Below are positions 31,592 to 63,627 of a stretch of 64,000 nt of DNA, piece by piece (the stretch's first letter is position 1; each line of letters starts with the position of its first letter). Location of the stretch: positions 128,001 through 192,000 of the IMG/VR virus record IMGVR_UViG_3300028886_000028, one strand, 5' to 3'. The notes beneath the pieces were generated by a model, which made no database searches, was not told where the DNA came from, and saw only the letters and a program-made list of their open reading frames with translations. The DNA is from a virus. Its lineage: Duplodnaviria; Caudoviricetes. A program made the position numbers and the translations under genes.

Positions 31592-32929
31592 ATGGCAAAA
31601 TATTTAAAATTATTTAGTGCTCATACTGATTATGAAGCTGCTAAAAGTAGTTTAATCCTACCAAATGTATCAATATGCTCTGATGTGCCTGATGAGGTGC
31701 ATTATAATCCACTTAGATGCGAAGAAAGGAGTGTATATGAGGTTGTAGGTATGCCATATTATCCGGCTACTGTTGATGGTGCTGATACATCATTTGACAT
31801 TACCGTCAATTATATAAGAACTGACATTAGCTTGTATTGTCAAGAGACAGTTACAGAAGGTACAGATACTGTAACTGTTGAGATTGGTGTGAATCCAAGT
31901 ACAAGTAATACGAGGACTGTAACGGGTACAGTTGATTATTACGGTAATGAGATTGAGTATAGTGTCACTCAGAGTAAGTTTGAGGCAAAGGTAACAGCTA
32001 AGTTCGATGTAACAGATACAAGTAGTCCAACAAAGTTATTAAATAACACAAATCATTTCAGTTCAATTGAGATAGATGACGTTGTTCAACCATCAGTTGT
32101 CAGCGCATATACGTTCGATACACTTGGTGAACATACAGTTAAATATACATTGGTAGACCCAACAATTATAGGCAGTAAAGCTTTCAGTGGCTGTACTAGT
32201 CTTACAAGTATAGATATACCTGATGGTGTTACAAGTATTGGTACTGAGGCTTTCAGAGGTTGTAGTAGCCTTAGTAGTTGTACAATAGGTGATGGTGTAA
32301 TAAGTATTGGTAATAGTGCTTTCAATGGCTGTACTAGTCTTACAAGTATAGATATACCTGATAGTGTAACAACTATTGGTAATAATGTTTTCTATAATTG
32401 TAGTGGCCTTACAAGTTGTACAATAGGTAGTGGTGTAACAAGTATCGGTAGTAATGCTTTCCAAGATTGTACTAGTCTTACAAATATAGTTATACCTGAT
32501 AGTGTTACAAGTATTGGTAATAGCGCTTTCAATGGATGTAGAAGTCTTACAAGTTGTACAATAGGTAGTGGCGTGACAAATATTGGTGATAGTGCTTTCA
32601 GAAATTGTAGAAGTCTTACAAGCTGTACAATAGGTGATGGCGTTACAAGTATTGGTAATAATGCTTTCCAAAATTGTACTAGCCTTGCAAGTTGTACAAT
32701 AGGCAGTGGTGTTACAAGTATTGGTAATAATGCTTTCCAAGATTGTACTAGTCTTAGTAACATAACATGCAATGCAATGACAGCGCCTACAATAGATAAT
32801 AATACATTCCAAAATGTTAAAACTAATGGAACATTATACGTTCCGCAAGGTAGTACTAGCTATGATGTATGGATGGGAACAGGAAACTATTACTTAGGAA
32901 AGTATAGTTGGACAAAAGTTGAACAATAA
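31592..32929 (+). CDS. Leader-family modular protein: leader + BACON-like repeat + BspA-type leucine-rich repeats
   Basis: MAKYLKLFSAHTDYEAAKSSLILPNVS...EVHYNP leader; 23-aa repeats TSIG..AF..CTSLTSI.IPD.V. Confidence 0.88.
   Translation: MAKYLKLFSAHTDYEAAKSSLILPNVSICSDVPDEVHYNPLRCEERSVYEVVGMPYYPATVDGADTSFDITVNYIRTDISLYCQETVTEGTDTVTVEIGVNPSTSNTRTVTGTVDYYGNEIEYSVTQSKFEAKVTAKFDVTDTSSPTKLLNNTNHFSSIEIDDVVQPSVVSAYTFDTLGEHTVKYTLVDPTIIGSKAFSGCTSLTSIDIPDGVTSIGTEAFRGCSSLSSCTIGDGVISIGNSAFNGCTSLTSIDIPDSVTTIGNNVFYNCSGLTSCTIGSGVTSIGSNAFQDCTSLTNIVIPDSVTSIGNSAFNGCRSLTSCTIGSGVTNIGDSAFRNCRSLTSCTIGDGVTSIGNNAFQNCTSLASCTIGSGVTSIGNNAFQDCTSLSNITCNAMTAPTIDNNTFQNVKTNGTLYVPQGSTSYDVWMGTGNYYLGKYSWTKVEQ
32164..32760 (+). 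repeat. Tandem 69-bp coding repeats (BspA/LRR_5)
   Basis: Recurring GTTACAAGTATTGGT..TGCTTTC..TGTA..AGTCTTACAAG units. Confidence 0.9.
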
Positions 32930-32946
32930 CAGTAGTAAGTAATATA

Positions 32947-33019
32947 AGGAGTGATTACAGTAGTAGTTACTCCTTTTATTATACCACCTTATGATTGTGG
33001 TCATACCAATGGAAGTACA
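32947..33019 (+). repeat. Cassette 3' element type A (terminator hairpin + 54-bp tail), copy 1
   Basis: 32966-33019 matches 36735-36788 at 53/54 nt; AAGGAGT...ACTCCTT hairpin. Confidence 0.9.
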
Positions 33020-33030
33020 TCTAATTATTT

Positions 33031-33855
33031 TTAATAATTTAATAGTATTTCTTTATCATTATCAACGTCTTCCACATTTTTTATTTCAAAATCATACAGT
33101 GAATATTCATTTGATAAATCAATAAATTCATGGCTGTTTTTTTCCAAATCCCAAACAACAAATCCATGTTGCGTGACAGTTTCTCCAAATGTTTGTTGTA
33201 TTAATGACCCGGGATAAACAATTGTTACATCACCACGTTTTATTTCTTGACGTTTATGAATATCACCAGCAGCAACAAAGTCACATCCATAAAATTCGTC
33301 ACCATCTATTCCACTTTCAACAACAGTACCATTGTTTAATGTTGCGCCTACTATTGTTCCATGATAAAGTCCAATTATTGTATTATCAGGAAAATCTTTT
33401 TTTGCTTGCTCTATATTTGGTTTTCTATAATCTGTGAATATTGAATATAAAGCCCAACAAACATTGTCATCAGGTACAATACCACTATCATATCCCAAAT
33501 AGCTATCTAAATGTATTGAATTTGAAAATTTGGATGCTGTGAATATTGCTGTAAGCGTATCTACTCTTGACATATTGCCAACCATTAGGTCGTGATTTCC
33601 ACTTATAACAATAACCTTGCCAAATTCTTCAAGGCTTCTTATCCAGGAGCTAACAAATGCTATTAACTCATTTGATATTGAGTTTTTAGAATGGACAATA
33701 TCGCCAGATATAACAATTCTTATTTCATCATTGTTATAGCCTTTTGTTATTTCCTTTATTTTTTCATTTAGTTCATTAAGTTTTGATGTGTATTCTTCCA
33801 ACCTTTGAAAGTTTCTTATATGCACGTCTGCAATATGAATTATTTTTTTTATCAT
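33031..33855 (-). CDS. SbcD/Mre11/gp47-like metallophosphoesterase nuclease
   Basis: HIADVH, SGDIVH, SGNHD, GLYHG, GDIHKRQ, YPGSLIQQTFGE. Confidence 0.85.
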   Translation of the reverse strand: MIKKIIHIADVHIRNFQRLEEYTSKLNELNEKIKEITKGYNNDEIRIVISGDIVHSKNSISNELIAFVSSWIRSLEEFGKVIVISGNHDLMVGNMSRVDTLTAIFTASKFSNSIHLDSYLGYDSGIVPDDNVCWALYSIFTDYRKPNIEQAKKDFPDNTIIGLYHGTIVGATLNNGTVVESGIDGDEFYGCDFVAAGDIHKRQEIKRGDVTIVYPGSLIQQTFGETVTQHGFVVWDLEKNSHEFIDLSNEYSLYDFEIKNVEDVDNDKEILLNY

Positions 33856-33874
33856 GTCTTAAAAATGTTTTATA

Positions 33875-33882
33875 CAAATATA
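33875..33882 (-). promoter_or_regulatory. Bacteroidota sigma-A -7 element (TATATTTG)
   Basis: TTTTTTGTATATTTG on minus strand 20 nt upstream of the nuclease ATG. Confidence 0.65.
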
Positions 33883-33932
33883 CAAAAAAAATATAAAATA
33901 CAGAAATATTTATATTAAATTAAAATGTGAAA

Positions 33933-34745
33933 ATGGCAGAAAGTATAGAAAAAATAGGATGGACTGCTACAGCTGATAAAGATTGGATAAATGTAATACC
34001 TCCGCATGGTGAAGGTGACATGGATATTGAAATACAGGTTATTCCTTCATCAGCTGTAGGGGATACTAATACGGCAGGCACTGTTACAATAGCTTGTAAT
34101 GATTGTGACACGGGCCCTTATGAAATTAAAGTATATCGTTGCGCCCCATCTGATTGCGAATATAAGTTATATAAGATTGATAATGTAAATATACCTTGTA
34201 GTGGATGCAATGAAAATGATACGTTAAATATAACATGTCATTATAATAGTGAATATTGCGAAGAAACTTCTGCAACTGAGTCATATATTGTGACTCAAGC
34301 CATATCTTGTAATGATACTACATCTACTAAGACTTACACTAAAACTTATAATGGAATAAGTTTCACAATTACTCAGGCAGCAGGAAATTGTTGCTGTACT
34401 TGTGACAATTTAGAATTAAGTAAATATAGTGTTACATTAGAACCTGACGGAGAAGATACAGTTTCAATTAATGATTCTGAAAATTGTGGATTTAATAATT
34501 TTAATGTTACATCTAGTAATGCAAGTATTGCGACAGCCTCAATAAATGGAAATACCATAACAATAAATGGGGTATCTGATGGTAATGCTACAATAACAGT
34601 TAGTTATGAATTAGATGGAACTAACTGTTCAAAAAATATTAGTGTGGCAGTTTCAACAGAATGCAAAGGATATACAATATCTCCTAATATACAGGTAGAT
34701 TGTGAAGGCGGAACAGTAATATTCACGGCAAATCCTAAAAACTAA
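33933..34745 (+). CDS. Cys-rich protein with BACON-like and Big_2 Ig-like domains
   Basis: WTATADKDWINVIP..GEG (BACON); VTSSNASIATASINGNTITINGVSDGNATITV (Big_2). ATG at 33933 preferred. Confidence 0.65.
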   Translation: MAESIEKIGWTATADKDWINVIPPHGEGDMDIEIQVIPSSAVGDTNTAGTVTIACNDCDTGPYEIKVYRCAPSDCEYKLYKIDNVNIPCSGCNENDTLNITCHYNSEYCEETSATESYIVTQAISCNDTTSTKTYTKTYNGISFTITQAAGNCCCTCDNLELSKYSVTLEPDGEDTVSINDSENCGFNNFNVTSSNASIATASINGNTITINGVSDGNATITVSYELDGTNCSKNISVAVSTECKGYTISPNIQVDCEGGTVIFTANPKN

Positions 34746-34768
34746 TTTGATTAAAAAAATATTGAAAA

Positions 34769-35419
34769 ATGATAATTCTTATAGACAATGGACATGGTTC
34801 TAACACAGAACAAAATGGAAAGTTCAGTCCTTTATTGGAATCTGATATGAAAATTGGGTCAGAATTCACTAATGGAGGAAGGTTTCGTGAGTGGAAATAT
34901 AACAGGGTAATATCTAATATGATAGTAGATAAACTTGTTTCAATGGGATATGATGCGAGACTAGTTGTTCCTGAAGATAAAGATATATCTTTGTCAGAAA
35001 GAATACGCAGGATAAATACAATATGTAATAAGGTTGGAGCAGGCAATGTGTTATTAATTTCAGTTCATGCTAATGCGGTTGGAAATGGTTCTCAATGGAT
35101 GACAGGAAAAGGTTGGGAAGCATATACAACAAAAGGAAAAACAAAATCTGATATTTTAGCAGATTTCCTTTATAAAAGAGCTGATAAAAATATATCAGGT
35201 AGAAAAATTAGAGAAGATTGGTCAGACGGAGATAGAGATAAAGAATCTGATTTTTATATCATTAAAAAATCATATTGTCCGGCCGTTTTGACAGAAAACT
35301 TTTTTTACGACAATAAAGATGATTTAAAATATCTAACATCAGACGAAGGAATTCACGCTGTTGTAAGATTACATATAGAAGGAATTATTGACTTCATTAA
35401 TTATATTAATAAAAAGTGA
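34769..35419 (+). CDS. N-acetylmuramoyl-L-alanine amidase (Amidase_3), probable endolysin
   Basis: LIDNGHG, E, LISVHANA, PAVLTENFF zinc-amidase motifs. Confidence 0.92.
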   Translation: MIILIDNGHGSNTEQNGKFSPLLESDMKIGSEFTNGGRFREWKYNRVISNMIVDKLVSMGYDARLVVPEDKDISLSERIRRINTICNKVGAGNVLLISVHANAVGNGSQWMTGKGWEAYTTKGKTKSDILADFLYKRADKNISGRKIREDWSDGDRDKESDFYIIKKSYCPAVLTENFFYDNKDDLKYLTSDEGIHAVVRLHIEGIIDFINYINKK

Positions 35420-35431
35420 AAAAACGATATT

Positions 35432-36703
35432 ATGGGAATTTATTTAAAAAAATTTAGCGCTCATACTGATTATGAAGCAGCTAAAAGTAGTTTAATACTA
35501 CCAAATGTATCAATATGCTCTGATGTGCTTGATGAGGTGCATTATAATCCATATGTAGGTATAAGTAGTGTTACACTTAACAAGAGTGAATTAAGTCTTA
35601 ATAAGGGTGAAACTGAGACGTTGGTAGCCACTGTATTGCCAGCTAATGCAAGTAACAAGGGTGTTACTTGGTCATCAAGTGATGATAGCGTTGCCACTGT
35701 GAGCAGTAACGGTCTTGTGACTGCTATTGGTGGTGGTAATACCAATATTACTGTAACAACTGTTGATGGTGGCTTTACAGCGCAATGTTCATTAAACATC
35801 ATTGTAAATGTAGCAGGTGTTACACTCAATAAGAGCACACTTAGTCTTAGCAAAGGTGCAACTGAAACATTAGTTGCAACAGTATCACCAAGCGATGCTG
35901 GTAATAAGAACGTTATTTGGTCATCGAGTAATGATAGTGTTGCTACTGTTAATAGCAATGGTCTTGTAACGGCTATTGGCGATAGTGGTAGTGCTATTAT
36001 TACAGTTACAACAGTTGATGGTGGTTTTACTGCACAGTGTGGCTGTAGTGTAATTGACACTAATGGGCATGATTATGTTGAGATTGGTGGACTTAAGTGG
36101 GCAACAAAGAATGTTGGTGCAAGCAAAATTACTGATAATGGTTTATATTTCCAATGGGGTGATACCCAAGGCTACACTGTTGACCAAGTAGGTAGTGGAA
36201 GCGGCAAGAAAGCCTTTGATTGGCCAGATTATAAGTACATAAGTGGAGTAGGAACATCAAGTTCGGCATTTACAAAATACAATTCAACTGATGGTTTAAC
36301 AACTCTTGAGGCTGTTGATGATGCTGCAAGTGTTAATATGGGTGGTTCATGGCGTATGCCAACATCTGAAGAATTACAAGCTCTTGGTGCTGCTAGTGAT
36401 TTTATCACGTCTGGCGGAACAAAAATAACAACCAGTGATAAGTTAACAACCTTAAATGGTGTCAAGGGTATCTTAGTTGCAGATAAAAACGACTATTCCA
36501 AGAGATTATTCTTTCCTACTGCGGGCTACTGCGCCAACACAACTGTGAACGATAGAGGAAGTAAAGGCTTCTGCCGGACGAGTTCGCTTTACAGTGGCGA
36601 CGTGAGTAAAGCCTACACCTTGCTCTTATTCAGCTACGGAGTGTACTGGGGTAGCGGCGGCCCTCGCAGCAACGGCTATCCGGTTCGTGGCGTGATTGCT
36701 TAA
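35432..36703 (+). CDS. Leader-family modular protein: leader + 2x Big_2 + C-terminal CLec/DUF1566-like domain with variable-looking end
   Basis: Leader MGIYLKKFSAHTDY...VHYNP; two 83-aa Big_2 repeats (249-nt period); HDYVEIGGLKWATKNVGA, WRMPT, LFFP..G, GYPVRGV. Confidence 0.88.
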   Translation: MGIYLKKFSAHTDYEAAKSSLILPNVSICSDVLDEVHYNPYVGISSVTLNKSELSLNKGETETLVATVLPANASNKGVTWSSSDDSVATVSSNGLVTAIGGGNTNITVTTVDGGFTAQCSLNIIVNVAGVTLNKSTLSLSKGATETLVATVSPSDAGNKNVIWSSSNDSVATVNSNGLVTAIGDSGSAIITVTTVDGGFTAQCGCSVIDTNGHDYVEIGGLKWATKNVGASKITDNGLYFQWGDTQGYTVDQVGSGSGKKAFDWPDYKYISGVGTSSSAFTKYNSTDGLTTLEAVDDAASVNMGGSWRMPTSEELQALGAASDFITSGGTKITTSDKLTTLNGVKGILVADKNDYSKRLFFPTAGYCANTTVNDRGSKGFCRTSSLYSGDVSKAYTLLLFSYGVYWGSGGPRSNGYPVRGVIA

Positions 36704-36718
36704 TAAGCACTGCATACA

Positions 36719-36788
36719 AGGAGTAATCAAATAGGTTACTCCTTTTATTATGCCACCTTATGATTGTGGTCATACCAATGGAAGTACA
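36719..36788 (+). repeat. Cassette 3' element type A, copy 2
   Basis: Matches 32966-33019. Confidence 0.9.
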
Positions 36789-37011
36789 CCTTGTATATTT
36801 ATTCAGAAGGGGAATTTATTACCAACAGGTATATAGTTCCCTAAATTAATATTACACTCACATTCACATATTAAGCCTAAGTAATTATACCGTCGTTGTT
36901 ACTGCAACGATGGTTCTTTATTTATAAAGATAGTTATTTATTTGTTTATTTCAACAATTAATGCTATTTTTACATTAAAAAGATATTTATTAATATAAAA
37001 TTTAGTGAAGT

Positions 37012-37850: not shown

Positions 37851-39332
37851 ATGGGAAGTTATATAAAAATATTTAATACTCATGAAGAGTATCTTGAATG
37901 GGTAGAAACTTCATTGGTAGAGCCTAACATTTCATTTTGTAAAGATAAGCCTCGCCAAGTACATTATCATCCATTGTCTGGATGTACAGAAGGTGTTGTG
38001 TATAAAATTACAAGCACGCCATCTTACCCTTCTATAATTGAAAACGATGTGACATCATTTGATATTAGCTTTGATTATAGAAAGGCTGATATAGATGAAC
38101 ATTGCAGAGAAACAGATATTGTAAACAGCGCTGATACTGTAACAGTTAATTGTGGCGCAAATACAGGCTCAACAGATAGAGTTGTATCAGGAGTCGTAAC
38201 ATGGAATAGAAACGATATTGAATATAACGTTGTTCAAAAAGGAGTTTGTGTTGATTCCACTGTATATGAACTTGTAGGAAATCCATCTTATCCGGCAACT
38301 ATTCAATATGACGTAACATCATTTGATATTAATTTCAATTATAAGAAAACTGTAACAACAAGTGATTGTCAAAAAACTGTTACAAACAGTGCAGATACTG
38401 TAACTGTTAATTGCGGAGCGAATACAGGTTCATCAGATAGAACAGTGTCAGGTACTGTAACATGGAATGGCATAAACATTGAGTATAGTGTTACGCAGAA
38501 AAAAGGTTGTACTGTTTCAACTGTATATGAGCTTGTAGGAAATCCATCTTATCCAGCAACAATTGAATACGATACAACATCATTTGTTATTAACTTTAAT
38601 TACAAAAAAACTGATACAAATGAGTATTGCCAAGAAACTGTTACAAACAGTGCAGATACTGTAACTGTTAATTGTGGCGCGAATACAGGTTCGTCAGATA
38701 GAACAGTATCCGGTACCGTAACATGGAATGGAATTAATATTGAATATAACGTTACACAAAGTGGCTATTCTGACCCGTATGGAGGCTATGAGTATGTTGA
38801 CTTAGGTCTTCCTAGTGGATTAAAATGGGCTAAATATAATATTGGTGCTTCCAATGAAAGCGAAGTAGGAATGTATTTTTCATACGGAAATATAGTCGGG
38901 CATTATAATTGTGACGGGTATGATTTTTCATCCGCTAGTTACAGTACAACAAACGGTTATAGATTAAGCGGAAATATACCTCAAAATTCACAGTATGATG
39001 CGGCTATTGCTATTTGGGGTAATGGATGGAGAATGCCGACGCGAGACGAATTTCAAGAATTAATAAATAATACAACTTGTTCTTATGATTCAAATACATA
39101 TACATTCACTATAACAAGTAAAATAAATGGTAAATCAATTAAAATAAAAGCTTCAGGATATTGGGATAATACTTCTTGCCCTAGCCTTACGACAACATCA
39201 ATATATATCATGTCTTCCACATTATCAGGAAAATATGGAGTATCATTGAATGCCTCTTCTTATGGCGATTATAAAATGCACGTATATGGTAATAGATTTA
39301 CAGGCTTACCAATTCGTCCTGTACATAGTTAA
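37851..39332 (+). CDS. Leader-family modular protein: divergent leader + 3x 87-aa BACON-like repeats + CLec/DUF1566-like domain
   Basis: MGSYIKIFNTHEEY...LVEPNISFC...QVHYHP; YEYVDLGLPSGLKWA, WRMPT, GLPIRPV. Confidence 0.85.
   Translation: MGSYIKIFNTHEEYLEWVETSLVEPNISFCKDKPRQVHYHPLSGCTEGVVYKITSTPSYPSIIENDVTSFDISFDYRKADIDEHCRETDIVNSADTVTVNCGANTGSTDRVVSGVVTWNRNDIEYNVVQKGVCVDSTVYELVGNPSYPATIQYDVTSFDINFNYKKTVTTSDCQKTVTNSADTVTVNCGANTGSSDRTVSGTVTWNGINIEYSVTQKKGCTVSTVYELVGNPSYPATIEYDTTSFVINFNYKKTDTNEYCQETVTNSADTVTVNCGANTGSSDRTVSGTVTWNGINIEYNVTQSGYSDPYGGYEYVDLGLPSGLKWAKYNIGASNESEVGMYFSYGNIVGHYNCDGYDFSSASYSTTNGYRLSGNIPQNSQYDAAIAIWGNGWRMPTRDEFQELINNTTCSYDSNTYTFTITSKINGKSIKIKASGYWDNTSCPSLTTTSIYIMSSTLSGKYGVSLNASSYGDYKMHVYGNRFTGLPIRPVHS
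37981..38760 (+). repeat. Three tandem 261-bp coding repeats
   Basis: C...VYE.VG.PSYPATI...NSADTVTVNCGANTGS.DR.VSG.VTWN..IEY.V.Q x3; copies 2 and 3 near-identical in DNA. Confidence 0.9.
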
Positions 39333-46910: not shown

Positions 46911-46958
46911 GAATGCAGTCAGAAATGGCTGCATTTTTTGTTGCCTTAGATATTTATA
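46911..46958 (+). repeat. Cassette 5' element, copy 2
   Basis: Matches 31521-31570. Confidence 0.85.
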
Positions 46959-46990: not shown

Positions 46991-48028
46991 ATGAAAAATT
47001 TTAAATTATTTAGTGCTCATACTGATTATGAGGCAGCTCAGAGCAGTTTAATACTACCAAATGTATCATTTTGTCTTGATACGCCAAATGAGGTACATTA
47101 TAATCCATTTGAGTGGTGTGAAGAAACTAGTATATATGAAGTAATAGGTAGTCCTTCATATCCATCTACAATAAATGGTGATATAACATCATTTGATATT
47201 GCAATTAGTTATAGAAGGACTGATACAAGTAGCTCTTGTACTGAAACTGTGACTGAAGGCACAGATACTGTTACCATTGAATGTGGTCAGAATCCAAGCA
47301 CAAGTGATACAAGGACTGTAAGTGGTACAGTTGATTATCATGGTAACGAGATTGAATATAGTGTTACTCAAAATAAGCTTAGTAATAATTCAGCAATTAC
47401 ATATTACGCAGAAAGTAAATTACTTGAGACAACTGATAGTAAATCAGATGGATTACGTACAAATGCGTTTAATGTATCAATTAAAAGCCATACATTCAGT
47501 AACGGTATAGGAACAATAACATTTAGTGGAACTTTAGGAACTATAGGTAGTTATGCTTTCCAAGGTTGTACTGGTCTTACAAGTATAGTTATACCAGATA
47601 GTGTAACAACTATTGGTTATGATGCTTTCAATAGATGTAGAAGCCTTACAAGTATAAATATACCTGATAGCGTTACAAGTATTGGTGACAATGCTTTCTA
47701 TAAATGTAGCGGCCTTACGAATATAGTTATACCTGATAGTGTTACAAGTATTGGTAGTAATGCTTTCGATAGTTGTTCTAATATGACAAGCTGTACAATA
47801 GGTAGTGGCGTAACAAGTATTAGTAATTATGCTTTCTATAATTGTAGTGGTCTTACAAGTATAACATGTAATGCAATGACAGCACCAACAGTAACATCAA
47901 ATTCATTTTACGGCGTCAAAAACGGTGGTACATTATATGTTCCTATAGGTAGCAGCGGTTATGACACTTGGATGGGAACAGGAAGTTATTACTTAGGAAG
48001 TATTAATTGGACTAAGGTAGAACAATAA
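46991..48028 (+). CDS. Leader-family modular protein: leader + BACON-like repeat + BspA-type LRRs
   Basis: Likely start MKNFKLFSAHTDY...EVHYNP at 46991; C-terminus GTLYVP.GS..YD.WMGTG.YYLG...WTKVEQ shared with 31592 gene. Confidence 0.88.
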   Translation: MKNFKLFSAHTDYEAAQSSLILPNVSFCLDTPNEVHYNPFEWCEETSIYEVIGSPSYPSTINGDITSFDIAISYRRTDTSSSCTETVTEGTDTVTIECGQNPSTSDTRTVSGTVDYHGNEIEYSVTQNKLSNNSAITYYAESKLLETTDSKSDGLRTNAFNVSIKSHTFSNGIGTITFSGTLGTIGSYAFQGCTGLTSIVIPDSVTTIGYDAFNRCRSLTSINIPDSVTSIGDNAFYKCSGLTNIVIPDSVTSIGSNAFDSCSNMTSCTIGSGVTSISNYAFYNCSGLTSITCNAMTAPTVTSNSFYGVKNGGTLYVPIGSSGYDTWMGTGSYYLGSINWTKVEQ

Positions 48029-52635: not shown

Positions 52636-53373
52636 ATGAAATATTTAAAATTATTTAATGACCATGCTGAATATGAAGTTGCTAAGAATGGTTTAATACT
52701 ACCTAATGTATCAAATTGTGTTAATACACAAAATGAAGTGCATTATAATCCTTATGACCCATATGCAGGCCATGAGTATGTTGAGATTGGCGGCTTGAAA
52801 TGGGCAACAATGAACATTGGTGCTTCGCAGCCAAGTGATTATGGTTTGTATTTCCAATGGGGTGACACACAAGGCTACACTGCTGAACAAGTAGGTAGTG
52901 GTGAAGGACAGAAATACTTTGGTTGGGAAGACTATAAATACGGTAATGGTACAAGTTCGCCAGGTGCTACAGGAATGACCAAGTATAACTCTACTGATGG
53001 CTTAACAACACTTGAGGCTGTTGATGATGCTGCTGTTGCTAATTGGGGTGGCAGTTGGCGTATGCCAACAACTGATGAATTCCAAGCTCTTGGTGCTGCC
53101 GTAAACACTGCATGGACTCAAGTTAACAACGTGTATGGTATGTTATGTACAGATAAGGAAGATAGTTCCAAGACATTATTCTTCCCTGCTGCTGGCAGCT
53201 GTCTCAATGGCAGTGTCAGATTCGTAGGCAATGACGGTGGCTATTGGTCTAGTTCTCTTGACACTGATGGTGGGCAGGACGCCTACGACTTGGACTTTTT
53301 CAGTAGCTATGCTGACTGGGGTAGCAGCGGCAGCCGCTGCTGCGGCTTCGCAGTTCGTCCTGTGGTTGGTTGA
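52636..53373 (+). CDS. Leader-family protein: leader + CLec/DUF1566-like domain, candidate DGR target
   Basis: MKYLKLFNDHAEY...EVHYNP; HEYVEIGGLKWATMNIGA, WRMPT, YWSSS, GFAVRPV; NNC-rich 3' end. Confidence 0.88.
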   Translation: MKYLKLFNDHAEYEVAKNGLILPNVSNCVNTQNEVHYNPYDPYAGHEYVEIGGLKWATMNIGASQPSDYGLYFQWGDTQGYTAEQVGSGEGQKYFGWEDYKYGNGTSSPGATGMTKYNSTDGLTTLEAVDDAAVANWGGSWRMPTTDEFQALGAAVNTAWTQVNNVYGMLCTDKEDSSKTLFFPAAGSCLNGSVRFVGNDGGYWSSSLDTDGGQDAYDLDFFSSYADWGSSGSRCCGFAVRPVVG

Positions 53374-53501
53374 GAATTCATCATCACCAATAAACCAAAA
53401 TAAACTTGATTGCCACAAGCGTCAGCCCAAGGCAATCAAGTTTTCTATTTATGCCACCTTGTTATGCATATACTAATGCCAACAGATATATAGTTTCCAA
53501 A
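53371..53501 (+). repeat. Cassette 3' element type B (~130 bp with 13-bp hairpin), copy 1
   Basis: Reverse complement of 62840-62970 with 5 mismatches; stem AAACTTGATTGCC/GGCAATCAAGTTT. Confidence 0.95.
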
Positions 53502-58311: not shown

Positions 58312-58327
58312 ATATATTTTTAGCATA

Positions 58328-59140
58328 ATGATTGATATAAATAAAATATATTGCGGCGATGCTGTAAAAATTCTTGAAAATATTGATAACGATAGTGTTG
58401 ACCTTGTTGTAACATCGCCGCCATATAGTAATCTTAGGAATTACGGTAACACTTTAATTGATTGGAATCATGATAAATTCAAAGAAATAGCCAATGAATT
58501 AAATAGGGTTTTAAAGCCGGGAGGGGTTATTGTATGGGTTGTTGGTGATAAAACAGAAAATGGCTCTGAAACTTGTATTCCTTTTAAGCAAACATTGTAT
58601 TTCAGAGATATAGGACTAAACCTTAACGATACGATGATATTCTTTAAAAGTAATCCTATGCCACAAGTTAAACAGCCAAGGTATAGAGATTGTTTTGAGT
58701 ATATGTTTGTTTTTTCTAAAGGGAAGCCAAGCACATTCAATCCTATCATGAGAAAATGTACTGAGAGTGGAAAACATTATAAATCAACTGTTAGAGTTAT
58801 AAACACAGATAATGATAGAAAAGATATTGATTATTTTGTAAGCGATGAAACAGTTGACTATAATGTATGGAGAATGTCCGTAGCGCAAAATAAAATTTTG
58901 TATGATTTAGGAGATAAAAAAATAAAACATCCGGCAGTATTTCCGTATGATATTCCGTTTAAACATATAAAAACCTGGACAAATGAAGGAGATTTAGTTT
59001 TAGACCCATTTATGGGAAGCGGAACCACAGCATTAGCAGCAATAAATTTGAAAAGGAATTATATAGGTATTGATGCTAATGAAGATTATTGTAAAATTGC
59101 TGACATTAGGATAAAAGCAAACGAAACATCTAAAAAATAA
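58328..59140 (+). CDS. DNA methyltransferase (N4-C/N6-A, beta class), paralog
   Basis: TSPPY, HPAVFP, VLDPFMGSGTT; start MIDINK at 58328. Confidence 0.92.
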   Translation: MIDINKIYCGDAVKILENIDNDSVDLVVTSPPYSNLRNYGNTLIDWNHDKFKEIANELNRVLKPGGVIVWVVGDKTENGSETCIPFKQTLYFRDIGLNLNDTMIFFKSNPMPQVKQPRYRDCFEYMFVFSKGKPSTFNPIMRKCTESGKHYKSTVRVINTDNDRKDIDYFVSDETVDYNVWRMSVAQNKILYDLGDKKIKHPAVFPYDIPFKHIKTWTNEGDLVLDPFMGSGTTALAAINLKRNYIGIDANEDYCKIADIRIKANETSKK

Positions 59141-59151
59141 AATTATAAGTA

Positions 59152-59826
59152 ATGGACAGTTTAATAAAAGATTTTAGAAAGTTCGCATTTGATAAAACAA
59201 ATGTAAGGCCATCAGCGTTAGATGCCAAAGTTAAATCAGTAGATAATATAATGCCATTTATTTTGGAAGAAAGAAAAATGAATGTCACCCAAATGGATGT
59301 TTTCAGTAGACTATTATTTGATAGAATTATTTATTTTTCCGGCGTGGTAGATGAAGATTCTTGTAATACAGTTATTGCACAATTGCTTTATTTATCATCT
59401 ACAGATAATAGGGATATAAACATATACATCAATAGTCCCGGTGGCTCAGTTGTAGATGGCCTTGGTGTAATTGACACTATTAATTTTGTTCCTTGTGACA
59501 TAACAACAACGTGTGTTGGAATGGCAGCATCAATGGGTGCAGTTTTGTTGAGTTGTGGCGCTAAAGGAAAAAGGCTTGTTTTGCCACATAGTAGAGTTAT
59601 GATTCATCAAGTATCTAGCAGCCAATCTGGTACTTTTTCAGACTTGGCAATTGAACTTGAACAAACTTTAAGATGCAAAAGGGATATATATAACATACTT
59701 GCTAAAAATACAGGCAAATCATATGAGCAGATAGAAAAAGATTGTGATAGAAACTTTTGGCTTATAGGTAAAGAAGCTGTAGATTATGGTATTGCTGATA
59801 AAGTTTTAAGTAAAGCTGAAAAATAA
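59152..59826 (+). CDS. clpP: ClpP protease subunit (Bacteroidales type)
   Basis: MDVFSRLLFDRII, YINSPGG, GMAASMG, SRVMIHQ. Confidence 0.93.
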   Translation: MDSLIKDFRKFAFDKTNVRPSALDAKVKSVDNIMPFILEERKMNVTQMDVFSRLLFDRIIYFSGVVDEDSCNTVIAQLLYLSSTDNRDINIYINSPGGSVVDGLGVIDTINFVPCDITTTCVGMAASMGAVLLSCGAKGKRLVLPHSRVMIHQVSSSQSGTFSDLAIELEQTLRCKRDIYNILAKNTGKSYEQIEKDCDRNFWLIGKEAVDYGIADKVLSKAEK

Positions 59827-59896
59827 AGGAGAATGAAACGTTTCTCCTTTATTTTTTAAACTAATATTATATTTATTAAAAAATAAAGTAGCAAAT

Positions 59897-60301
59897 ATGA
59901 TATTAAGGTTAATAGAATCTGATTTGCATAAGCTAATATCTTCTACAGTTAAGAAAATATTAAAGGAGAATTCAGAAAATAATGTAATATTAAGTAAAAT
60001 AGTTGAAGGCTTATCAATCTCTGGTATTCCATCAAAAATAGGGATGAATCAGGTAGACATCCCTCTTGATTACAATGGTAATGTTATCGCATGCATAGAT
60101 TATGAAATAGAAGAAAAACAAGGAGATTATAATGTGTTTATAACGTCTATTGTAATAGATGACGATGGTAAAGAATTCGAAATTGAAGATAATGGCATGG
60201 TTACGAATGCATTAAAAAATTTAATTGAACCGTGGACAGAAGATGTTGGATATTATGAAGAAGATGACGACCAATCTGGATGGAATGAAAATTGGAAATA
60301 A
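59897..60301 (+). CDS. Putative internal head protein (LIESDLHKLI motif)
   Basis: Shared N-terminal motif; ATATTTAT upstream. Confidence 0.5.
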   Translation: MILRLIESDLHKLISSTVKKILKENSENNVILSKIVEGLSISGIPSKIGMNQVDIPLDYNGNVIACIDYEIEEKQGDYNVFITSIVIDDDGKEFEIEDNGMVTNALKNLIEPWTEDVGYYEEDDDQSGWNENWK

Positions 60302-60333
60302 ATAATAATTATTATATAAAAACATTAAGAAAC

Positions 60334-60462
60334 ATGGCATGTGGATGTAAAAACAAGGCAGCAAATGCAAGTACAAATGTGGTAAAATCAGCCCCAACAC
60401 AGGAGTCTAAGCCTCAGAAGACTTCAAATGGAGCAAGAATAATCAAAAGAGAAATTAGATAA
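60334..60462 (+). CDS. Small basic protein MACGCK... (42 aa, not in ORF track)
   Basis: Fills intergenic gap, A-rich leader. Confidence 0.5.
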   Translation: MACGCKNKAANASTNVVKSAPTQESKPQKTSNGARIIKREIR

Positions 60463-60464
60463 TT

Positions 60465-60821
60465 ATGATTGACGCACCAAAAACAACATTATTAAATAAT
60501 ATAGATGACTTGGATTTAGTATTTCTTGAAGGGGAAAACGATTTAGAGTTTGAAATAGATGATTATTCATTTGTTGTAACATATTCCCTAGAAGAAGATG
60601 ATTTTTTCACTGAAGATGATGAGGAAATCAAAGGAGGAAAAAAACTGAAAATTTTATCAATAAACGCATATGATAATGTAGAGAATGAAGACATAAACGT
60701 TAACGTTGATGACGAAATGCAAAAATTATTCTCAGATTATTATAAAAATATGTTAAATGATGAAGGATATGAGCCATTAAATGTTAATTTTGGTGAATTT
60801 TCTGATTTTATGGATGAATAA
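60465..60821 (+). CDS. Highly acidic hypothetical protein
   Basis: Asp/Glu-rich, 118 aa. Confidence 0.55.
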   Translation: MIDAPKTTLLNNIDDLDLVFLEGENDLEFEIDDYSFVVTYSLEEDDFFTEDDEEIKGGKKLKILSINAYDNVENEDINVNVDDEMQKLFSDYYKNMLNDEGYEPLNVNFGEFSDFMDE

Positions 60822-60845
60822 TTTCTTTTTTTGATATTTTTTTTG

Positions 60846-60853
60846 TATCTTTG
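60846..60853 (+). promoter_or_regulatory. Bacteroidota -7 element driving tRNA cluster
   Basis: TTTTTTGTATCTTTG (TAnnTTTG). Confidence 0.7.
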
Positions 60854-60910
60854 CTAAAAGAAATTAATGGGGCAGAGCGTTACCTAAGAGACAACAGCCC
60901 CATTAAATTT

Positions 60911-60992
60911 GGCAGAATGGCGGAATTGGCAGACGCGCATCACTCAAAATGATGTATCTCATGGTGTAAGGGTTCAAGTCCCTTTTCTGCTA
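60911..60992 (+). tRNA. tRNA-Leu(CAA)
   Basis: Cloverleaf: GGCAGAA/TTCTGCT, D arm GGCGGAATTGGCAGACGC, CATCA-CTCAAAA-TGATG, long V arm, GGTTCAAGTCC. Confidence 0.9.
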
Positions 60993-61039
60993 CAATTATA
61001 AAAGTAGTCCAACCTTGGCAAAGGTTAAAATATAAAACA

Positions 61040-61180
61040 AGGAAAGTAACAGCAAGCATTTGTAATACGCGATGGCTCCGCTGACTAATATGGTCGTTTA
61101 GGTTCGAATCCTAACATATGAGGATAACTCGTAGTGTGGTGGAATTGGTAGACACGGCGGAATAATTAAAATTCTTTCCT
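61040..61180 (+). ncRNA. Circularly permuted tRNA-like RNA in an ACAGCAA stem (Y-RNA/YrlA-like architecture)
   Basis: Order is V arm, T arm (TTAGG-TTCGAAT-CCTAA), loop-closed acceptor stem, D arm (TGGTGGAATTGGTAGACAC). Closed by TCCGC/GCGGA and by outer AGGAAAG/CTTTCCT. Confidence 0.7.
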
Positions 61181-61188
61181 AAATAGAT

Positions 61189-61276
61189 GCTCTTGTGGTG
61201 GAATTGATAGACACCCCAGAATTAGAATCTGGTGCGAAATAATAGTAGCGTGTGGGTTTGAGTCCCTCCAGGAGCA
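61189..61276 (+). tRNA. tRNA-Leu(TAG), slightly atypical
   Basis: GCTCTTG/CAGGAGC, CCAGA-ATTAGAA-TCTGG, long V arm; T loop TTTGAGT and one T-stem mismatch. Confidence 0.75.
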
Positions 61277-61304
61277 CTTTTTTGAAATAAATAATATTTA
61301 TATT

Positions 61305-61457
61305 ATGAGTCCTTGTTGGCATTGCCCTTATTTCAATAAAATGGGAAAAAGGTATTTTTGCTCATTGAAGGGTATCTATTTAACAGAAAATGGTGTAGAT
61401 TTTTGCTCTGGGCCGAGTTACAAATATAAAAAGAAACATAAAAATAGAAAAAAATGA
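61305..61457 (+). CDS. Small Cys-rich basic protein (50 aa, not in ORF track)
   Basis: MSPCWHCPYF...FC...FC...KKKHKNRKK; four Cys. Confidence 0.45.
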   Translation: MSPCWHCPYFNKMGKRYFCSLKGIYLTENGVDFCSGPSYKYKKKHKNRKK

Positions 61458-61617
61458 AGAATATAACACGACAACAACAGCAACAAAGTTAAGTCGTATC
61501 AACCATATGGGAACGGTTGATACTGATATTGTATTAACCAATCCTATTTATATTATAATTATTTTTTACCTTAAGTTCCCATTAGTAACAATACTGATGG
61601 GATTTTTTGTTTTATAA

Positions 61618-61689
61618 TGGAGAGTGGTATAACGGCCATTACACGAGATTTTGGTCCTCGGAATCCGGGTTCGATTCCCGGCTCTCCAA
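61618..61689 (+). tRNA. tRNA-Gln(TTG)
   Basis: TGGAGAG/CTCTCCA with U1-A72, anticodon loop TT-TTG-GT, CCGGG-TTCGATT-CCCGG. Confidence 0.88.
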
Positions 61690-61696
61690 CAAAAAA

Positions 61697-61783
61697 TGGG
61701 AGTTGGCCGAGTGGTTTAAGGCGTGTGCCTCTGGAACACATGTAGACATAAATCTACCGTAGGTTCGAATCCTACATTCCCAA
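61697..61783 (+). tRNA. Long-variable-arm tRNA with CTG (Gln) anticodon
   Basis: TGGGAGT/ATTCCCA acceptor, D arm GGCCGAGTGGTTTAAGGC, loop CT-CTG-GA, V arm GTAGA-CATAAA-TCTAC, GTAGG-TTCGAAT-CCTAC. Confidence 0.75.
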
Positions 61784-61853
61784 CTTTGAAAAAATGTTTT
61801 TTAACGTTAGTATATATTTATTCAAAATAAGAAATTAATTTTGAATAAAGAAA

Positions 61854-62045
61854 ATGGAATATTTTGTAGATACAGAAAGAATTAGTTTGGATTATTCATA
61901 TGATAGAATATTTAAAGAAATACCAAAATATAGATTAACATTATATGATAAATATGGGCATTTTGATGCTGACGTTTATTTAACAGATGAACAAATTGAA
62001 GATTTGCTCACGGGACTTGAAAAAATAAAAAATAACATTAAATGA
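61854..62045 (+). CDS. Hypothetical protein
   Basis: 63 aa after ATATTTAT. Confidence 0.5.
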   Translation: MEYFVDTERISLDYSYDRIFKEIPKYRLTLYDKYGHFDADVYLTDEQIEDLLTGLEKIKNNIK

Positions 62046-62046
62046 T

Positions 62047-62295
62047 ATGGGTACATTATTTAATTTTGCAATGCATGTTATTTTATGGCCTATTGTTTTG
62101 TTTCTGGTCTTTACAGCGACTACGAATATTGATTTAATTTTTTATGCTATAAAGAAAGTATTAATTAAAATAAAAGAATATTATGAATTTATTAGAAAAC
62201 GTATTTGTAAAAAAAGCAATAAAGTCGATGATGACGGCGGAGCAATTCGAGACTATGCAGAATTTTATGACAGCAGTTCAGTCTGGGAAGATTGA
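62047..62295 (+). CDS. Small membrane protein
   Basis: N-terminal hydrophobic segment; overlaps next ORF. Confidence 0.4.
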   Translation: MGTLFNFAMHVILWPIVLFLVFTATTNIDLIFYAIKKVLIKIKEYYEFIRKRICKKSNKVDDDGGAIRDYAEFYDSSSVWED

Positions 62296-62392
62296 CCAAA
62301 ACAAACTTAAAAATGTTGGTGAAAAATTATCTAAAATATCGCCGGAAGAAGTGAATAATCTTTTGGACATAATAGACAAAAACTTGAAGTAG
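62183..62392 (+). CDS. Hypothetical helical protein
   Basis: Protein-like composition; ends at a hairpin. Confidence 0.5.
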   Translation: MNLLENVFVKKAIKSMMTAEQFETMQNFMTAVQSGKIDQNKLKNVGEKLSKISPEEVNNLLDIIDKNLK

Positions 62393-62438
62393 TAATTCAA
62401 CTACTCAAGTTTTTCTTTTTTTATAAAAACATTTTTAA

Positions 62439-62825
62439 ATGGTACATGTTATTAATATAAAAACTGATGATAAGACAATGGATGAAGGATATTTCTACGT
62501 AGGCCGTAGCAAATATAATAATTCTCCACTTGGAAACCCCTTTACATGTAAAGGAAAGCGAACAAGTTTAGCAAAACTATCATTTCCAACAGTTGAACAA
62601 GCAATAGAAGCCTACGAAATGTATTTTGATGCCATGTACGGTAAAGATGAAGATTTCACGAAGGCTTTTGATGAAATATACGAATATTATAAAACTGGAA
62701 AAGATGTATATCTTGGATGTTTTTGTGCACCGGGTAAATGCCATGCATCTATCATTGCTAAAAAATTGCAACAGAAATTAATAAAGGAAAAAATGGAAGA
62801 AAGAAAAAAGGAGAAGCTCAAATAA
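62439..62825 (+). CDS. DUF4326-like protein
   Basis: YVGR...SPLGNPF, LGCFCAPGKCHASII. Confidence 0.75.
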   Translation: MVHVINIKTDDKTMDEGYFYVGRSKYNNSPLGNPFTCKGKRTSLAKLSFPTVEQAIEAYEMYFDAMYGKDEDFTKAFDEIYEYYKTGKDVYLGCFCAPGKCHASIIAKKLQQKLIKEKMEERKKEKLK

Positions 62826-62839
62826 GCCTCTCCTTTTTA

Positions 62840-62970
62840 TTTGGGAACTATATATCTGTTGGCATTAGTATATGCATAATAAGGTAGTATAAATAGAAAA
62901 CTTGATTGCCTTGGGCTGACGCTTGTGGCAATCAAGTTTATTTTGGTTTATTGGCGATGATGAATTCTCA
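62840..62970 (-). repeat. Cassette 3' element type B, copy 2
   Basis: Reverse complement matches 53371-53501. Confidence 0.95.
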
Positions 62971-63627
62971 ACCTACCACAGGGCGAACCGAGAAGCCGTA
63001 GTAACGGTAGTCCTTGAACACGCCCTTGGCACCATTGAGAAAGAAGAAGCTGTAAGCGTTACCACTACCATTAGGAGAAGAACCCCAATAGTAACCGCTA
63101 TTGCCTACATCGCTCTGGCTACCATTGTACCAGCGGCCAACAGCAGGAAGAAATAAAACAGCCCCATTGGTGGCTGTGAATGTACCACCATTTATTCCAC
63201 TACCTTTGTAGTTTGTTACCCACTGATAAGTAGTATTAGCTGTCAATTCTTGCATTTGTACACTCGTTGGCATATGCCAAGAGCCACCCCACACTTGCAC
63301 TGCTGTATCTACAGAAGAATCTAATGGGTATTCTGTTCCACTATAGTTGCTATCGCCACTTGTTGCTGCATATTGAGCAGCGCCCTTACCGTATTGATAG
63401 TAATTACCATAATCCGTTTCTGATGAAGCACCCACGTTCATTGTAGCCCAAAGTGTACCACTTGGTAGACCAAGGTCAACATACTCATGGCCTGCATATG
63501 GGTCAACATAAGGATTATAATGCACTTCATTAGGCGTATCATTACATGTTGATACATTTGGTAGTATCAAATTACTCTGTGCTGATTCGTAATCAGTATG
63601 AGCATTAAATTTTTTTAAGTATTTCAT
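62968..63627 (-). CDS. Leader-family protein: leader + CLec/DUF1566-like domain, candidate DGR target
   Basis: MKYLKKFNAHTDY...EVHYNP; HEYVDLGLPSGTLWATMNVGA, WHMPT, YYWGSS, GFSVRPV; NNC-rich 3' end. Confidence 0.88.
   Translation of the reverse strand: MKYLKKFNAHTDYESAQSNLILPNVSTCNDTPNEVHYNPYVDPYAGHEYVDLGLPSGTLWATMNVGASSETDYGNYYQYGKGAAQYAATSGDSNYSGTEYPLDSSVDTAVQVWGGSWHMPTSVQMQELTANTTYQWVTNYKGSGINGGTFTATNGAVLFLPAVGRWYNGSQSDVGNSGYYWGSSPNGSGNAYSFFFLNGAKGVFKDYRYYGFSVRPVVG

Follow-up and report, generated by a model that had tools for sequence, protein, structure and literature searches.

A 40-residue N-terminal leader shared by diverse adhesin-type proteins of a T4-like rumen phage

Leader genes and their payloads

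The window, a 64-kb stretch of the 401,138-bp genome of a T4-like rumen phage, holds six genes whose products open with the same N-terminal module of ~40 amino acids (the leader) and continue into diverse payloads (Table 1). As an earlier note on this DNA had described, the K-F..VHY[NH]P leader was present in all six. K6, F8, H11, Y14, E15, L21, P24, N25, S27, C29, V36, H37, Y38 and P40 are invariant among them; the junction with the payload is fixed, behind ..VHYNP, and a Pro-rich linker often comes next. A run of very large ORFs (9093-31535), opened by the gp25-like and gp6-like genes, stops just before member 1, and most members sit amid non-structural genes (SbcCD, endolysin). Member 2, which lacks a promoter motif of its own, lies directly 3' of the endolysin gene (34769-35419). 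A longer ORF of member 4 begins at 46913, but this start was rejected, since the promoter-like motif sits inside that ORF and the leader aligns from Met27. The 3' blocks of members 5 and 6 are 94% identical, although the lectin bodies of the two proteins share only 44% identity.

Table 1 Positions of leader genes and associated features in the window
Feature	Position	Strand	Description
Baseplate wedge genes	6463-8870	+	gp25-like and gp6-like; context
ATATTTATA, late-promoter-like motif	31562-31570	+	22 nt 5' of member 1; hairpin and T-run before the motif
Member 1	31592-32929	+	445 aa: leader 31592-31711, one ~88-aa two-Cys repeat, middle segment, BspA-type LRR_5
Member 2	35432-36703	+	423 aa: leader 35432-35551, two Big_2, C-type-lectin-like domain
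Member 3	37851-39332	+	493 aa: leader 37851-37973, three ~88-aa repeats, C-type-lectin-like domain
ATATTTATA, promoter-like motif	46950-46958	+	5' of member 4, within the longer ORF
Member 4	46991-48028	+	345 aa from Met: leader 46991-47107, one ~88-aa repeat, middle segment (differs from that of member 1), LRR_5
Member 5	52636-53373	+	245 aa: leader 52636-52752, C-type-lectin-like domain; AF2 pLDDT 88
3' block, copy 1	53340-53501	+	Last codons, hairpin and ~130 nt downstream (member 5)
3' block, copy 2	62840-63001	-	Partner of copy 1 (member 6)
Member 6	62968-63627	-	219 aa: leader 63511-63627, C-type-lectin-like domain
ATATTTATA, promoter-like motif	63647-63655	-	20 nt 5' of member 6

The payloads proposed earlier held up for the leucine-rich repeats, the two Big_2 domains and the domain layouts. 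LRR_5 (PF13306; Pfam cut-off 27.7 bits) scored 257.6 bits (E 2e-77) in member 1 and 219.8 bits (E 1e-65) in member 4, and exceeded the cut-off by a wide margin in seven more members of the genome and narrowly in m33556 (29.6 bits). Big_2 (PF02368) matched two stretches of member 2 above its gathering cut-off (118.6 bits) and was also found in genome member 33556. The label 'BACON-like' for the ~88-aa repeat has weak support: its best score against BACON (PF13004) was a sub-threshold 18.1 bits (E 0.0026; cut-off 25 bits), two of the eight repeats taken in isolation matched, at E 0.012 or worse, and no sequence match was found in the PDB. The C-type-lectin-like assignment was supported at the level of fold. 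The scores against Lcl_C (PF07603, DUF1566) were 20-27 bits, below the Pfam cut-off of 34.9, and C-type-lectin-like domains dominated the list returned by the fold search (VIA), in which the Lcl C-terminal domain (Z 6.7), Bd2740 (6.5) and Mtd (5.6) were matched. Genome-wide, five or more payload architectures lie behind the leader; the types are LRR, C-type-lectin-like and Ig-like, with a GH2 glycosidase in relatives, and LRR_5 is dominant (48 of 101 public members).

These payloads are modules of adhesin type. Their homologues in cells are surface proteins that undergo export, and 13 of the 15 cellular homologues examined start with a signal peptide or lipobox. Consistent with the earlier claim that the leader proteins lack a signal peptide, a hydropathy scan did not show the N-terminal hydrophobic h-region of an export or lipoprotein signal; the maximum 11-residue hydropathy was at most 1.76, compared with 2.35-3.78 in the cellular homologues. 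The lectin-like payload was also considered as the target of a diversity-generating retroelement (DGR) and rejected: the complete genome contains no RVT_1 match (positive controls were detected), and no template-like copy of the 3' ends was found beyond the paralogues.

Distribution, exchange and context of the leader

The leader profile and member count that the earlier note proposed enlarged its six-member family; the six stand, but the total was too low. Thirteen genes of the genome matched the profile (E 1e-8 to 1e-27; next match E 0.16), each with the leader starting at residue 1-2, and two more (genome positions 211969 and 215120) carry a visibly divergent copy, so that the phage has at least 13 and probably 15 leader genes, scattered over 360 kb. 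Among 1.84 billion public protein representatives, 1,352 clusters (50% identity) matched, and the leader was N-terminal in nearly all of the best 150. No matching model was found in the copies of Pfam, PHROGs and NCBIfam that were searched, and the leader therefore deserves a family model of its own. No match to the leader was found in 50,697 GenBank phages, and all PDB sequences yielded two chance-level matches (E 0.8 and 1.6), neither from a phage. The carriers span three virion types, namely T4-like huge phages, a crAss-like contig and a temperate siphovirus of 34 kb, which the assembly of a Segatella isolate also contains. Payload homologues were present at 79 bacterial or archaeal loci, among which only a phage-sized Segatella contig of 34.5 kb had the leader. 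Judged from these sequence searches, the leader is phage-specific.

Selection on the leader acts, by sequence criteria, on the protein. Mean pairwise differences at codon positions 1, 2 and 3 were 0.17, 0.18 and 0.30, and among 136 leader sequences F7 and P23 were invariant, with at least 90% conservation at 10 more positions. The conserved polar residues are H10, C28 and H36, of which H10 and C28 covary.

The leaders of members 1 and 2 share 93% of their DNA; nine of the first 120 nucleotides differ, four of them in nucleotides 21-120, in agreement with the earlier count of about four differences per 100 nt in front of unrelated payloads. Identity stops exactly after codon 40, and the flanks are at random identity (32%). 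This pattern indicates, at the sequence level, that leader DNA has been exchanged between unrelated payloads at the leader/payload junction, as the earlier picture of a portable leader with interchangeable, recombining payloads had it. Because the leader is self-contained and joined at a fixed point, a crossover at the joint swaps payloads. Whole leader cassettes also move among genome positions and among phages of differing virion type. The description of the genes as scattered, moron-like cassettes likewise fits, given that they are dispersed, partly self-promoted and located at non-syntenic sites in relatives, rather than held in fixed, syntenic architectures.

Nine of the 15 leader genes have the motif ATATTTATA at 15-45 nt upstream, compared with 35 of 424 other genes (Fisher p 1.5e-6), and the motif also lies 5' of an operon with the gp23-like capsid gene and fibre-like genes. 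As a short, AT-rich bare word it is mildly enriched in the window (15 occurrences versus 7.7 expected), and we regard it as a putative late-type promoter-like motif. In the crAss-like contig, the leader gene is located between the ring and muzzle genes, and an 88-kb recoded phage has four tandem leader genes after lysozyme and M15 tail-type genes. In siphovirus-group phages of 24-34 kb, the leader gene is directly 5' of a gene for a fibre-like protein of 1046-1262 aa (1167 in G003); these two genes gave the only clear protein matches in common with the 401-kb phage. In the temperate siphovirus, the leader gene is outside the tail module. Both in this genome and in a relative, two divergent-leader LRR genes flank a gene for a GT2 glycosyltransferase.

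Predicted fold and possible roles

AlphaFold2 (AF2) predicted for the leader alone a strand, helix, strand, strand arrangement (a beta-alpha-beta-beta mini-domain; pLDDT 88.5, pTM 0.62) with the same elements as within the full protein, and on this model the leader is an autonomous, self-folding mini-domain. Its best structural match was the trimerisation domain of collagens XV and XVIII (multiplexins; PDB 3HON, 3N3F, 9BNB), likewise a small autonomous unit, with Z 4.2-4.8 and an rmsd of 2.0-2.4 A over 38-40 of 45 residues; it ranked top in an exhaustive aligner and was among Foldseek's top matches. Sequence identity is 2-10% and the collagen domain belongs to the animal extracellular matrix, so that the likeness is one of predicted fold only. 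Lower-ranked matches fell on the N-terminal ~45 residues of Mtd and of trimeric tailspikes or fibres from phages (Z 2.1-3.3). All Z values were below 5, weak in absolute terms, for a 45-residue model. As to oligomeric state, the best matches, at Z only 2-4.8, are trimerisation domains and the N-termini of trimeric tailspikes.

The best explanation, to which we assign a probability of roughly 0.45, is that the leader is a portable tag by which accessory adhesins or receptor-binding proteins are anchored and probably also trimerised. One N-terminal module precedes unrelated distal binding domains in the same phage (13 + 2 copies), as expected of an anchor module. The leader takes the place held by the signal peptide or lipobox in the cellular payload homologues; it would bring adhesin or receptor-binding modules together, probably in threes, and fix them to a virion site, for which a fibre or tail/baseplate position is favoured over the capsid. 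In this way the phage would gain 13-15 different accessory binding heads, of LRR, C-type-lectin-like and Ig-like type. We infer oligomerisation, virion attachment and the attachment site, the attachment by analogy and from genomic context. Against this explanation, a BLAST-level comparison of the siphovirus, the crAss-like locus and the T4-like phage revealed no structural protein present in all three, which is awkward for one conserved docking site. The window members amid non-structural genes, the siphovirus leader gene outside its tail module, the weak fold matches and the mild enrichment of the short motif also count against it.

A wider reading, which we consider somewhat unlikely, is that the leader could be a universal, horizontally portable docking-and-trimerising tag for combinatorial adhesin display on three virion architectures (siphovirus, crAss-like podovirus and T4-like huge myovirus) of Prevotellaceae phages. 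Either the receptor site would travel with the leader, for example on the co-occurring long fibre, or paralogues would co-assemble through the common leader into mixed trimers; in both cases the display would be combinatorial and reshuffled by a single crossover at codon 40.

That no conserved partner was found over three virion types would favour an oligomerisation (trimerisation) unit and nothing more, with the proteins freed at lysis as soluble multivalent lectins or adhesins that stay off the virion and might, for example, mask receptors, clump debris, or attach to mucus or to particles of feed. The best fold match, a dedicated trimerisation domain, and the many members amid non-structural genes agree with such a role. 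We nevertheless regard it, including these example functions, as unlikely: capsid and fibre genes have the same expression signals, the sites within tail-gene blocks of other phages better fit structural proteins, and phages usually hold binding modules on particles.

Attachment to the capsid, with the leader anchoring a mixed adhesin coat in the pockets of gp23-type hexamers in the manner of T4 Hoc, T5 pb10 or crAss001 gp21/gp29, appears improbable. The crAss001 head fibres do dock through residues 1-38 and 1-58 (PMC10172136), a gp23-like capsid protein is present, a 401-kb head would offer hundreds of equivalent sites to 13-15 competitors, and passages of PMC13370021 link Ig, BACON-like and lectin payload types to mucus or epithelium binding. 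However, two of the carrier types differ in capsid family (siphovirus major capsid protein, phrog_617, versus the gp23 type), leader genes adjoin tail and fibre genes rather than capsid genes, and no sequence match to the gp21 or gp29 chains in the PDB was found.

Decidedly improbable, in our view, is a tag recognised not by the virion but, for instance, by a chaperone or glycosyltransferase of the phage, by a route of export or packaging, or by a structure of the host, so that payloads would be delivered or modified rather than displayed. The leader stands in for the export signals of cellular homologues, the GT2 gene lies between divergent-leader LRR genes in this phage and in a relative, and H10, C28 and H36, of which the first two covary, hint at a specific binding or metal site. 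Yet the leader contains neither a hydrophobic nor any known secretion motif, the small siphovirus has no cleavage motif or partner enzyme to go with it, and the payload types act outside cells. That the similarity reflects a repeat in the DNA itself (an element of recombination or regulation) or recent duplication, devoid of protein function, as pairs as alike as members 1 and 2 might suggest, has a negligible probability and is already contradicted by the most variable third codon positions, the same residues kept in 1,352 diverged public clusters and the confident autonomous fold prediction.

Relation to known systems and significance

The earlier statement that no described system has such an architecture was overstated, since it is well known that tips can be swapped on a conserved N-terminal anchor. 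Such anchors are the norm both in branched tailspike complexes (PMC11414711, PMC10408124) and in the mosaic adhesive trimer (MAT) fibres of Bdellovibrio (PMC10769870). In PhicrAss001, short docking segments have been solved for gp21 (1-38), gp29 (1-58) and the tail fibre gp22 (1-26) (PMC10172136). As proposed for the leader, these similar-sized N-terminal segments mount distal binding domains in phages of gut or rumen Bacteroidota, and one leader gene sits in a crAss-like tail gene block. The leader differs in having no sequence similarity to them, in serving as one tag for 13-15 proteins per genome and over three virion types, and in that its docking is proposed from analogy and context, whereas that of PhicrAss001 is solved.

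Among the branched complexes, TSP1-4 of the Ackermannviridae phage CBA120 share with the leader family a conserved N-terminus, a variable C-terminus and boundary recombination, with several receptor-binding proteins per virion compared with several genes per genome. The CBA120 anchors are larger, consist of several domains and sit on trimeric beta-helix enzymes from a single locus; the leader is a 40-aa mini-domain on LRR, lectin and Ig-like payloads. The Bdellovibrio fibres likewise comprise many paralogues with a common N-terminal part and diverse tips, and the lectin-like payload matches the Bd2740 tip, but the fibres are bacterial, long, coiled and exported, with no sequence relation to the leader. 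Phage-borne combinations of Ig-like or BACON-type domains, akin to those proposed here, are also known from T4 Hoc and from the modular adhesins of crAss-like phages and an unassigned myovirus-like group (PMC13370021, PMC6949934); the passages of PMC13370021 retrieved by term searches do not mention a common N-terminal tag, and in the leader family the dominant payload is LRR_5.

By analogy, the leader arrangement is therefore most likely a known principle, N-terminal mounting, in a new form. What is new is the particular domain, its breadth over virion types and its copy number per genome, and public sequence data indicate an undescribed domain that is common in uncultured phages. If the leader mounts proteins on virions, it would be a natural 'plug' in use among many uncultured phages of gut and rumen. 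The uptake of host-type surface adhesins (LRR, lectin, Ig-like, glycosidase) by Bacteroidota phages would then be explained by 40 residues replacing an export signal. There would also be a rule for predicting which proteins of metagenomic phages are accessory receptor-binding proteins, and a ready handle for display when such phages are engineered. The presence of one leader over three tail architectures raises the testable question of what it binds.

Leader genes and their payloads in the 401-kb genome

The record from which the window (bases 128001-192000) derives is a genome of 401,138 bp (GC content 31%; CheckV, 100% complete), and its major capsid protein is T4 gp23-like (E = 6e-28 to solved gp23 chains). 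Only residues 379-652 of this 678-aa protein align to solved gp23, and it therefore has a long N-terminal part outside the aligned region. The earlier note had described six window genes that begin with a common leader of ~40 residues followed by differing payloads, and translation and alignment bore this out: 14 positions are invariant in the alignment of the first ~40 residues. The genome-wide count that it had called for gave 13 matches of the leader profile in the six-frame translation (E values of 1e-8 to 1e-27), all starting at residue 1-2 of the ORF; the next match had an E value of 0.16. Because two further LRR genes, at genome positions 211969 and 215120, open with a visibly related, diverged leader, the family comprises approximately 15 members, which are dispersed over 360 kb on both strands. 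The table lists the seven members beyond the window.

Positions of leader genes and associated features (window or whole-genome coordinates; L008-L012, stretches of the 401-kb genome; L005, a crAss-like contig)
Feature	Position	Strand	Remarks
Leader genes of the window	window 31592, 35432, 37851, 46991, 52636, 63627	(-) for 63627	
Leader member	genome 33556		Big_2 x2, lectin-like domain, LRR
Leader member	genome 36114		diverged leader, 956 aa, without known domain
Leader member	genome 216960		zero to two ~88-aa repeats, then LRR_5
Leader member	genome 314002	(-)	zero to two ~88-aa repeats, then LRR_5
Leader member	genome 323737	(-)	zero to two ~88-aa repeats, then LRR_5
Leader member	genome 327431	(-)	zero to two ~88-aa repeats, then LRR_5
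Leader member	genome 394357	(-)	zero to two ~88-aa repeats, then LRR_5
ATATTTATA sites	window 31562, 33906, 40445, 46950, 63647, others		
162-nt shared 3' block	window 53340-53501 and 62840-63001	(+) and (-)	94% identical
109-aa and 207-aa gene pair	window 5425-6380	(+)	207-aa product peptidase-like, phrog_16701; just upstream of wedge genes
Related gene pair, crAss-like contig	L005:14451-15397		adjoins muzzle gene
gp25-like and gp6-like baseplate wedge genes	window 6463-8870 (baseplate block, window 6463-31535)		
gp23-like major capsid gene	genome 27515-29551 (L008:7515-9551)		
Fibre-like family	genome 30944-43313, 60866-67852, 192284-211603 (L008-L011)		members at genome 30944, 39121, 60866, 63248, 192284 and 204784-211603; interleaved with leader genes
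GT2 glycosyltransferase gene	genome 213516-215066		within 211969-218165 (L012:969-7165)

LRR_5 (BspA-type) and Big_2 payloads score far over the Pfam cut-offs. The C-type-lectin-like assignment of four window genes has support at the level of fold, although their Lcl_C Pfam matches remained below cut-off; the best fold match of an AF2 model (52636 protein, pLDDT 88) was the C-terminal domain of Legionella Lcl (Z 6.7), followed by the tip of Bdellovibrio Bd2740 (Z 6.5), InvE, Mtd and many CTLDs. The ~88-aa repeat, in which two cysteines are invariant, had been called BACON-like; its likeness to BACON was marginal only, and its profile matched no PDB sequence. No member in the genome carries an export signal, as had been remarked for the six window genes.

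The leaders of 31592 and 35432 share 93% DNA identity over 120 nt, compared with 32% upstream and downstream, and the similarity ends exactly past codon 40 (..N-P). The payload of 35432 is nearest to that of the member at genome position 33556, which has a far more diverged leader, indicating that leader and payload have different histories. In two relatives, leader genes stand between conserved syntenic neighbours at places where the 401-kb genome has none, and the LRR cluster around the GT2 gene differs in order and content; the architectures, which had been proposed to be shuffled, were thus neither fixed nor syntenic in the two relatives compared. Differences among paralogous leaders are concentrated at third codon positions (0.30 versus 0.17 and 0.18), and selection has therefore acted on the leader peptide rather than on an element of the DNA or RNA.

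A 3' block that spans the last codons, a hairpin and ~130 nt downstream is common to the two lectin-only genes, while the bodies of these genes are 44% identical. A DGR reading of the lectin payloads was rejected for the 401-kb genome, which holds neither an RVT_1 reverse transcriptase nor a template repeat, so that the block resembles a footprint of recombination or duplication, or a relic.

The GT2 gene is located between the two diverged-leader LRR genes, whose products have long (Ser-Gly)n linkers, and an LRR gene with a canonical leader comes next; this placement may point to glycosylation of the adjoining leader LRR proteins. The genes of this cluster also occur, in another order, in the relative G001.

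The word ATATTTATA was found 15-45 nt upstream of 9 of the 15 leader genes, compared with 35 of 424 other genes (Fisher p = 1.5e-6), and leader genes without it abut a same-strand upstream gene. The same word stands ahead of the operon that includes the gp23-like capsid gene and several fibre-like genes. Genome-wide, it lies at most 80 nt upstream of 44 genes, which accounts for 48% of its 91 occurrences. Since the word is AT-rich and only mildly over-represented, we go no further than to term it late-promoter-like, a candidate for a late promoter element in this phage.

Distribution of the leader in public data

A 13-sequence leader profile matched 1,352 clusters at E <= 1e-3 among 1.84 billion representative proteins, 143 of them at E <= 1e-10. 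In the best 150 of the 1,352 matches, the leader begins at residue 1-2, except where a few genes had been called too long and in one repeat protein, an apparent false positive. No model in the searched copies of Pfam, PHROGs and NCBIfam matched the leader, and matches to PDB sequences were at chance level. In 50,697 GenBank phages, tblastn detected no leader; with the 52636 protein it found Lak megaphages matching the lectin part only (~30% identity), and megablast of window 31-54 kb returned no match. The leader fold gave nothing significant against BFVD viral models or the ESM Atlas, and a search for 'longer' homologues was empty. DUF8237 (PF26707) is annotated (precomputed) on two leader-plus-lectin proteins and is missing from most leader proteins, so it is not the leader; it is present neither in the local Pfam copy nor in the literature searched.

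Among 101 public members of at least 140 aa, the payload was LRR_5 in 48, Lcl_C in 3 and Big_2 in 2, with one each of a GH2 glycosidase (plus LRR), BACON, Fib_succ_major and others; the remainder had no family. As a locus query, an 8-sequence leader alignment retrieved 8 viral loci and none in cellular genomes. Homologues of the siphovirus leader-gene payload were found at 79 bacterial or archaeal loci, with the leader in a Segatella contig only, and 13 of the 15 cellular homologues examined start with a signal peptide or lipobox. The phage proteins thus resemble surface adhesin modules of host type in which the leader has taken the place of the export signal. As judged from these searches, the leader is a phage-specific module, common in uncultured phages and new to the libraries searched.

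Leader genes occur in three kinds of setting. Relatives of the 401-kb phage carry them on contigs of 86-300 kb and on IMG/VR fragments at 30-82% protein identity. Among TAG-recoded phages, a 108-kb crAss-like contig has a leader-plus-lectin gene and a diverged-leader LRR gene between its ring-protein and muzzle genes, and an 88-kb phage has four tandem leader genes after lysozyme and M15 tail-type genes. Temperate siphoviruses of 24-34 kb (with terminase, portal, protease, capsid, major tail, tape measure and serine integrase) have a leader gene whose immediate downstream neighbour is fibre-like and 1046-1262 aa long (1167 in the complete siphovirus G003); the isolate assembly of Segatella sinensis CLA-AA-H174 holds such a siphovirus as a phage-sized contig of 34.5 kb (L035), with a leader protein 64% identical over its full length to that of G003. 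Genes in the non-huge-phage contigs with several leader genes (L005 and L006/L007) are open only when TAG is read as Gln; the standard code applies in the 401-kb phage and in the 34-kb siphovirus.

The 401-kb phage has a second paralogous family, nine large fibre-like proteins of 430-1806 aa, which is homologous to the fibre adjoining the leader gene in the 34-kb siphoviruses. Several share the N-terminal motif GEIAVN..KN..G.VV; one matches a tail-fibre PHROG and several match phrog_13589.

Predicted fold and conservation of the leader

AF2 predicted a strand (4-7), a helix (10-19) and two further strands (24-28 and 34/35-38), both in the full protein and in the leader alone (136 sequences; pLDDT 88.5, pTM 0.62). 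In an exhaustive structural search of 48,161 chains, the top two matches were the trimerisation domains of collagen XVIII and XV (Z 4.3 and 4.2); Foldseek independently placed the same collagen domain among a few candidates (re-scored Z 4.8, rmsd 2.0 A, 40/45 residues), and lower rows (Z 2.1-3.3) repeatedly fell on the N-terminal ~45 residues of Mtd and of phage tailspikes or fibres that are trimeric. These modest Z scores show resemblance only. Co-folding of three leader copies, run without controls, scored 0.00 and was given no weight.

In the 136-sequence alignment, F7 and P23 are invariant, and Y3, Y13, N24, V25, S26, C28, V35, H36, Y37 and P39 are at least 90% conserved (His36, 94%). H10 and C28 are lost jointly in public leaders (Fisher p = 1e-9, relatedness ignored), with H changing to Q/T as C changes to T (public leader alignment A7), which suggests that H10, C28 and perhaps H36 form a contact or metal site.

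Possible role and partners of the leader

We propose that the leader would act as a portable tag that assembles and anchors accessory adhesins or receptor-binding proteins. This reading best explains the joint observation of an autonomous module, phage specificity, replacement of export signals and binding or glycan-cleaving payloads, together with expression signals common with structural genes, a fold like a trimerisation unit, and leader genes that, in four phage groups, lie within or beside those for tail and fibre proteins. On this analysis, anchoring on the virion at the tail, a fibre or an undefined site has a probability of roughly 0.45.

By BLAST, the siphovirus, the crAss-like locus and the T4-like phage have no common structural protein besides the leader proteins and the repetitive fibre-like protein, which leaves three readings: a receptor site that moves along with the tag, for which the fibre is the sole candidate; a tag that binds something generic; or soluble trimeric adhesins that would be freed at lysis. 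Soluble oligomers are, overall, unlikely. Capsid decoration is less probable still, and another recognition role slightly less so again. The 109-aa and 207-aa pair is 46-55% identical to its crAss-like counterpart, an unexpected tie between two very different phages; as a universal leader partner it was rejected, because it is missing from five further viral records with a leader, of which two are complete.

The principle of an N-terminal anchor with a variable distal part is already known. The head fibres of PhicrAss001 are seated in hexon pockets through the N-termini of gp21 (residues 1-38) and gp29 (residues 1-58), and its tail fibre is held in the tail hub through residues 1-26 of gp22 (PMC10172136); branched tailspike complexes combine conserved N-terminal anchors with exchangeable distal domains (PMC11414711, PMC10408124), and chimeric fibres form a family of paralogues in Bdellovibrio (PMC10769870). 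A conserved anchor with a swappable binding tip is therefore established logic; what is unusual is one leader on 13-15 proteins of a single genome and in three virion types.
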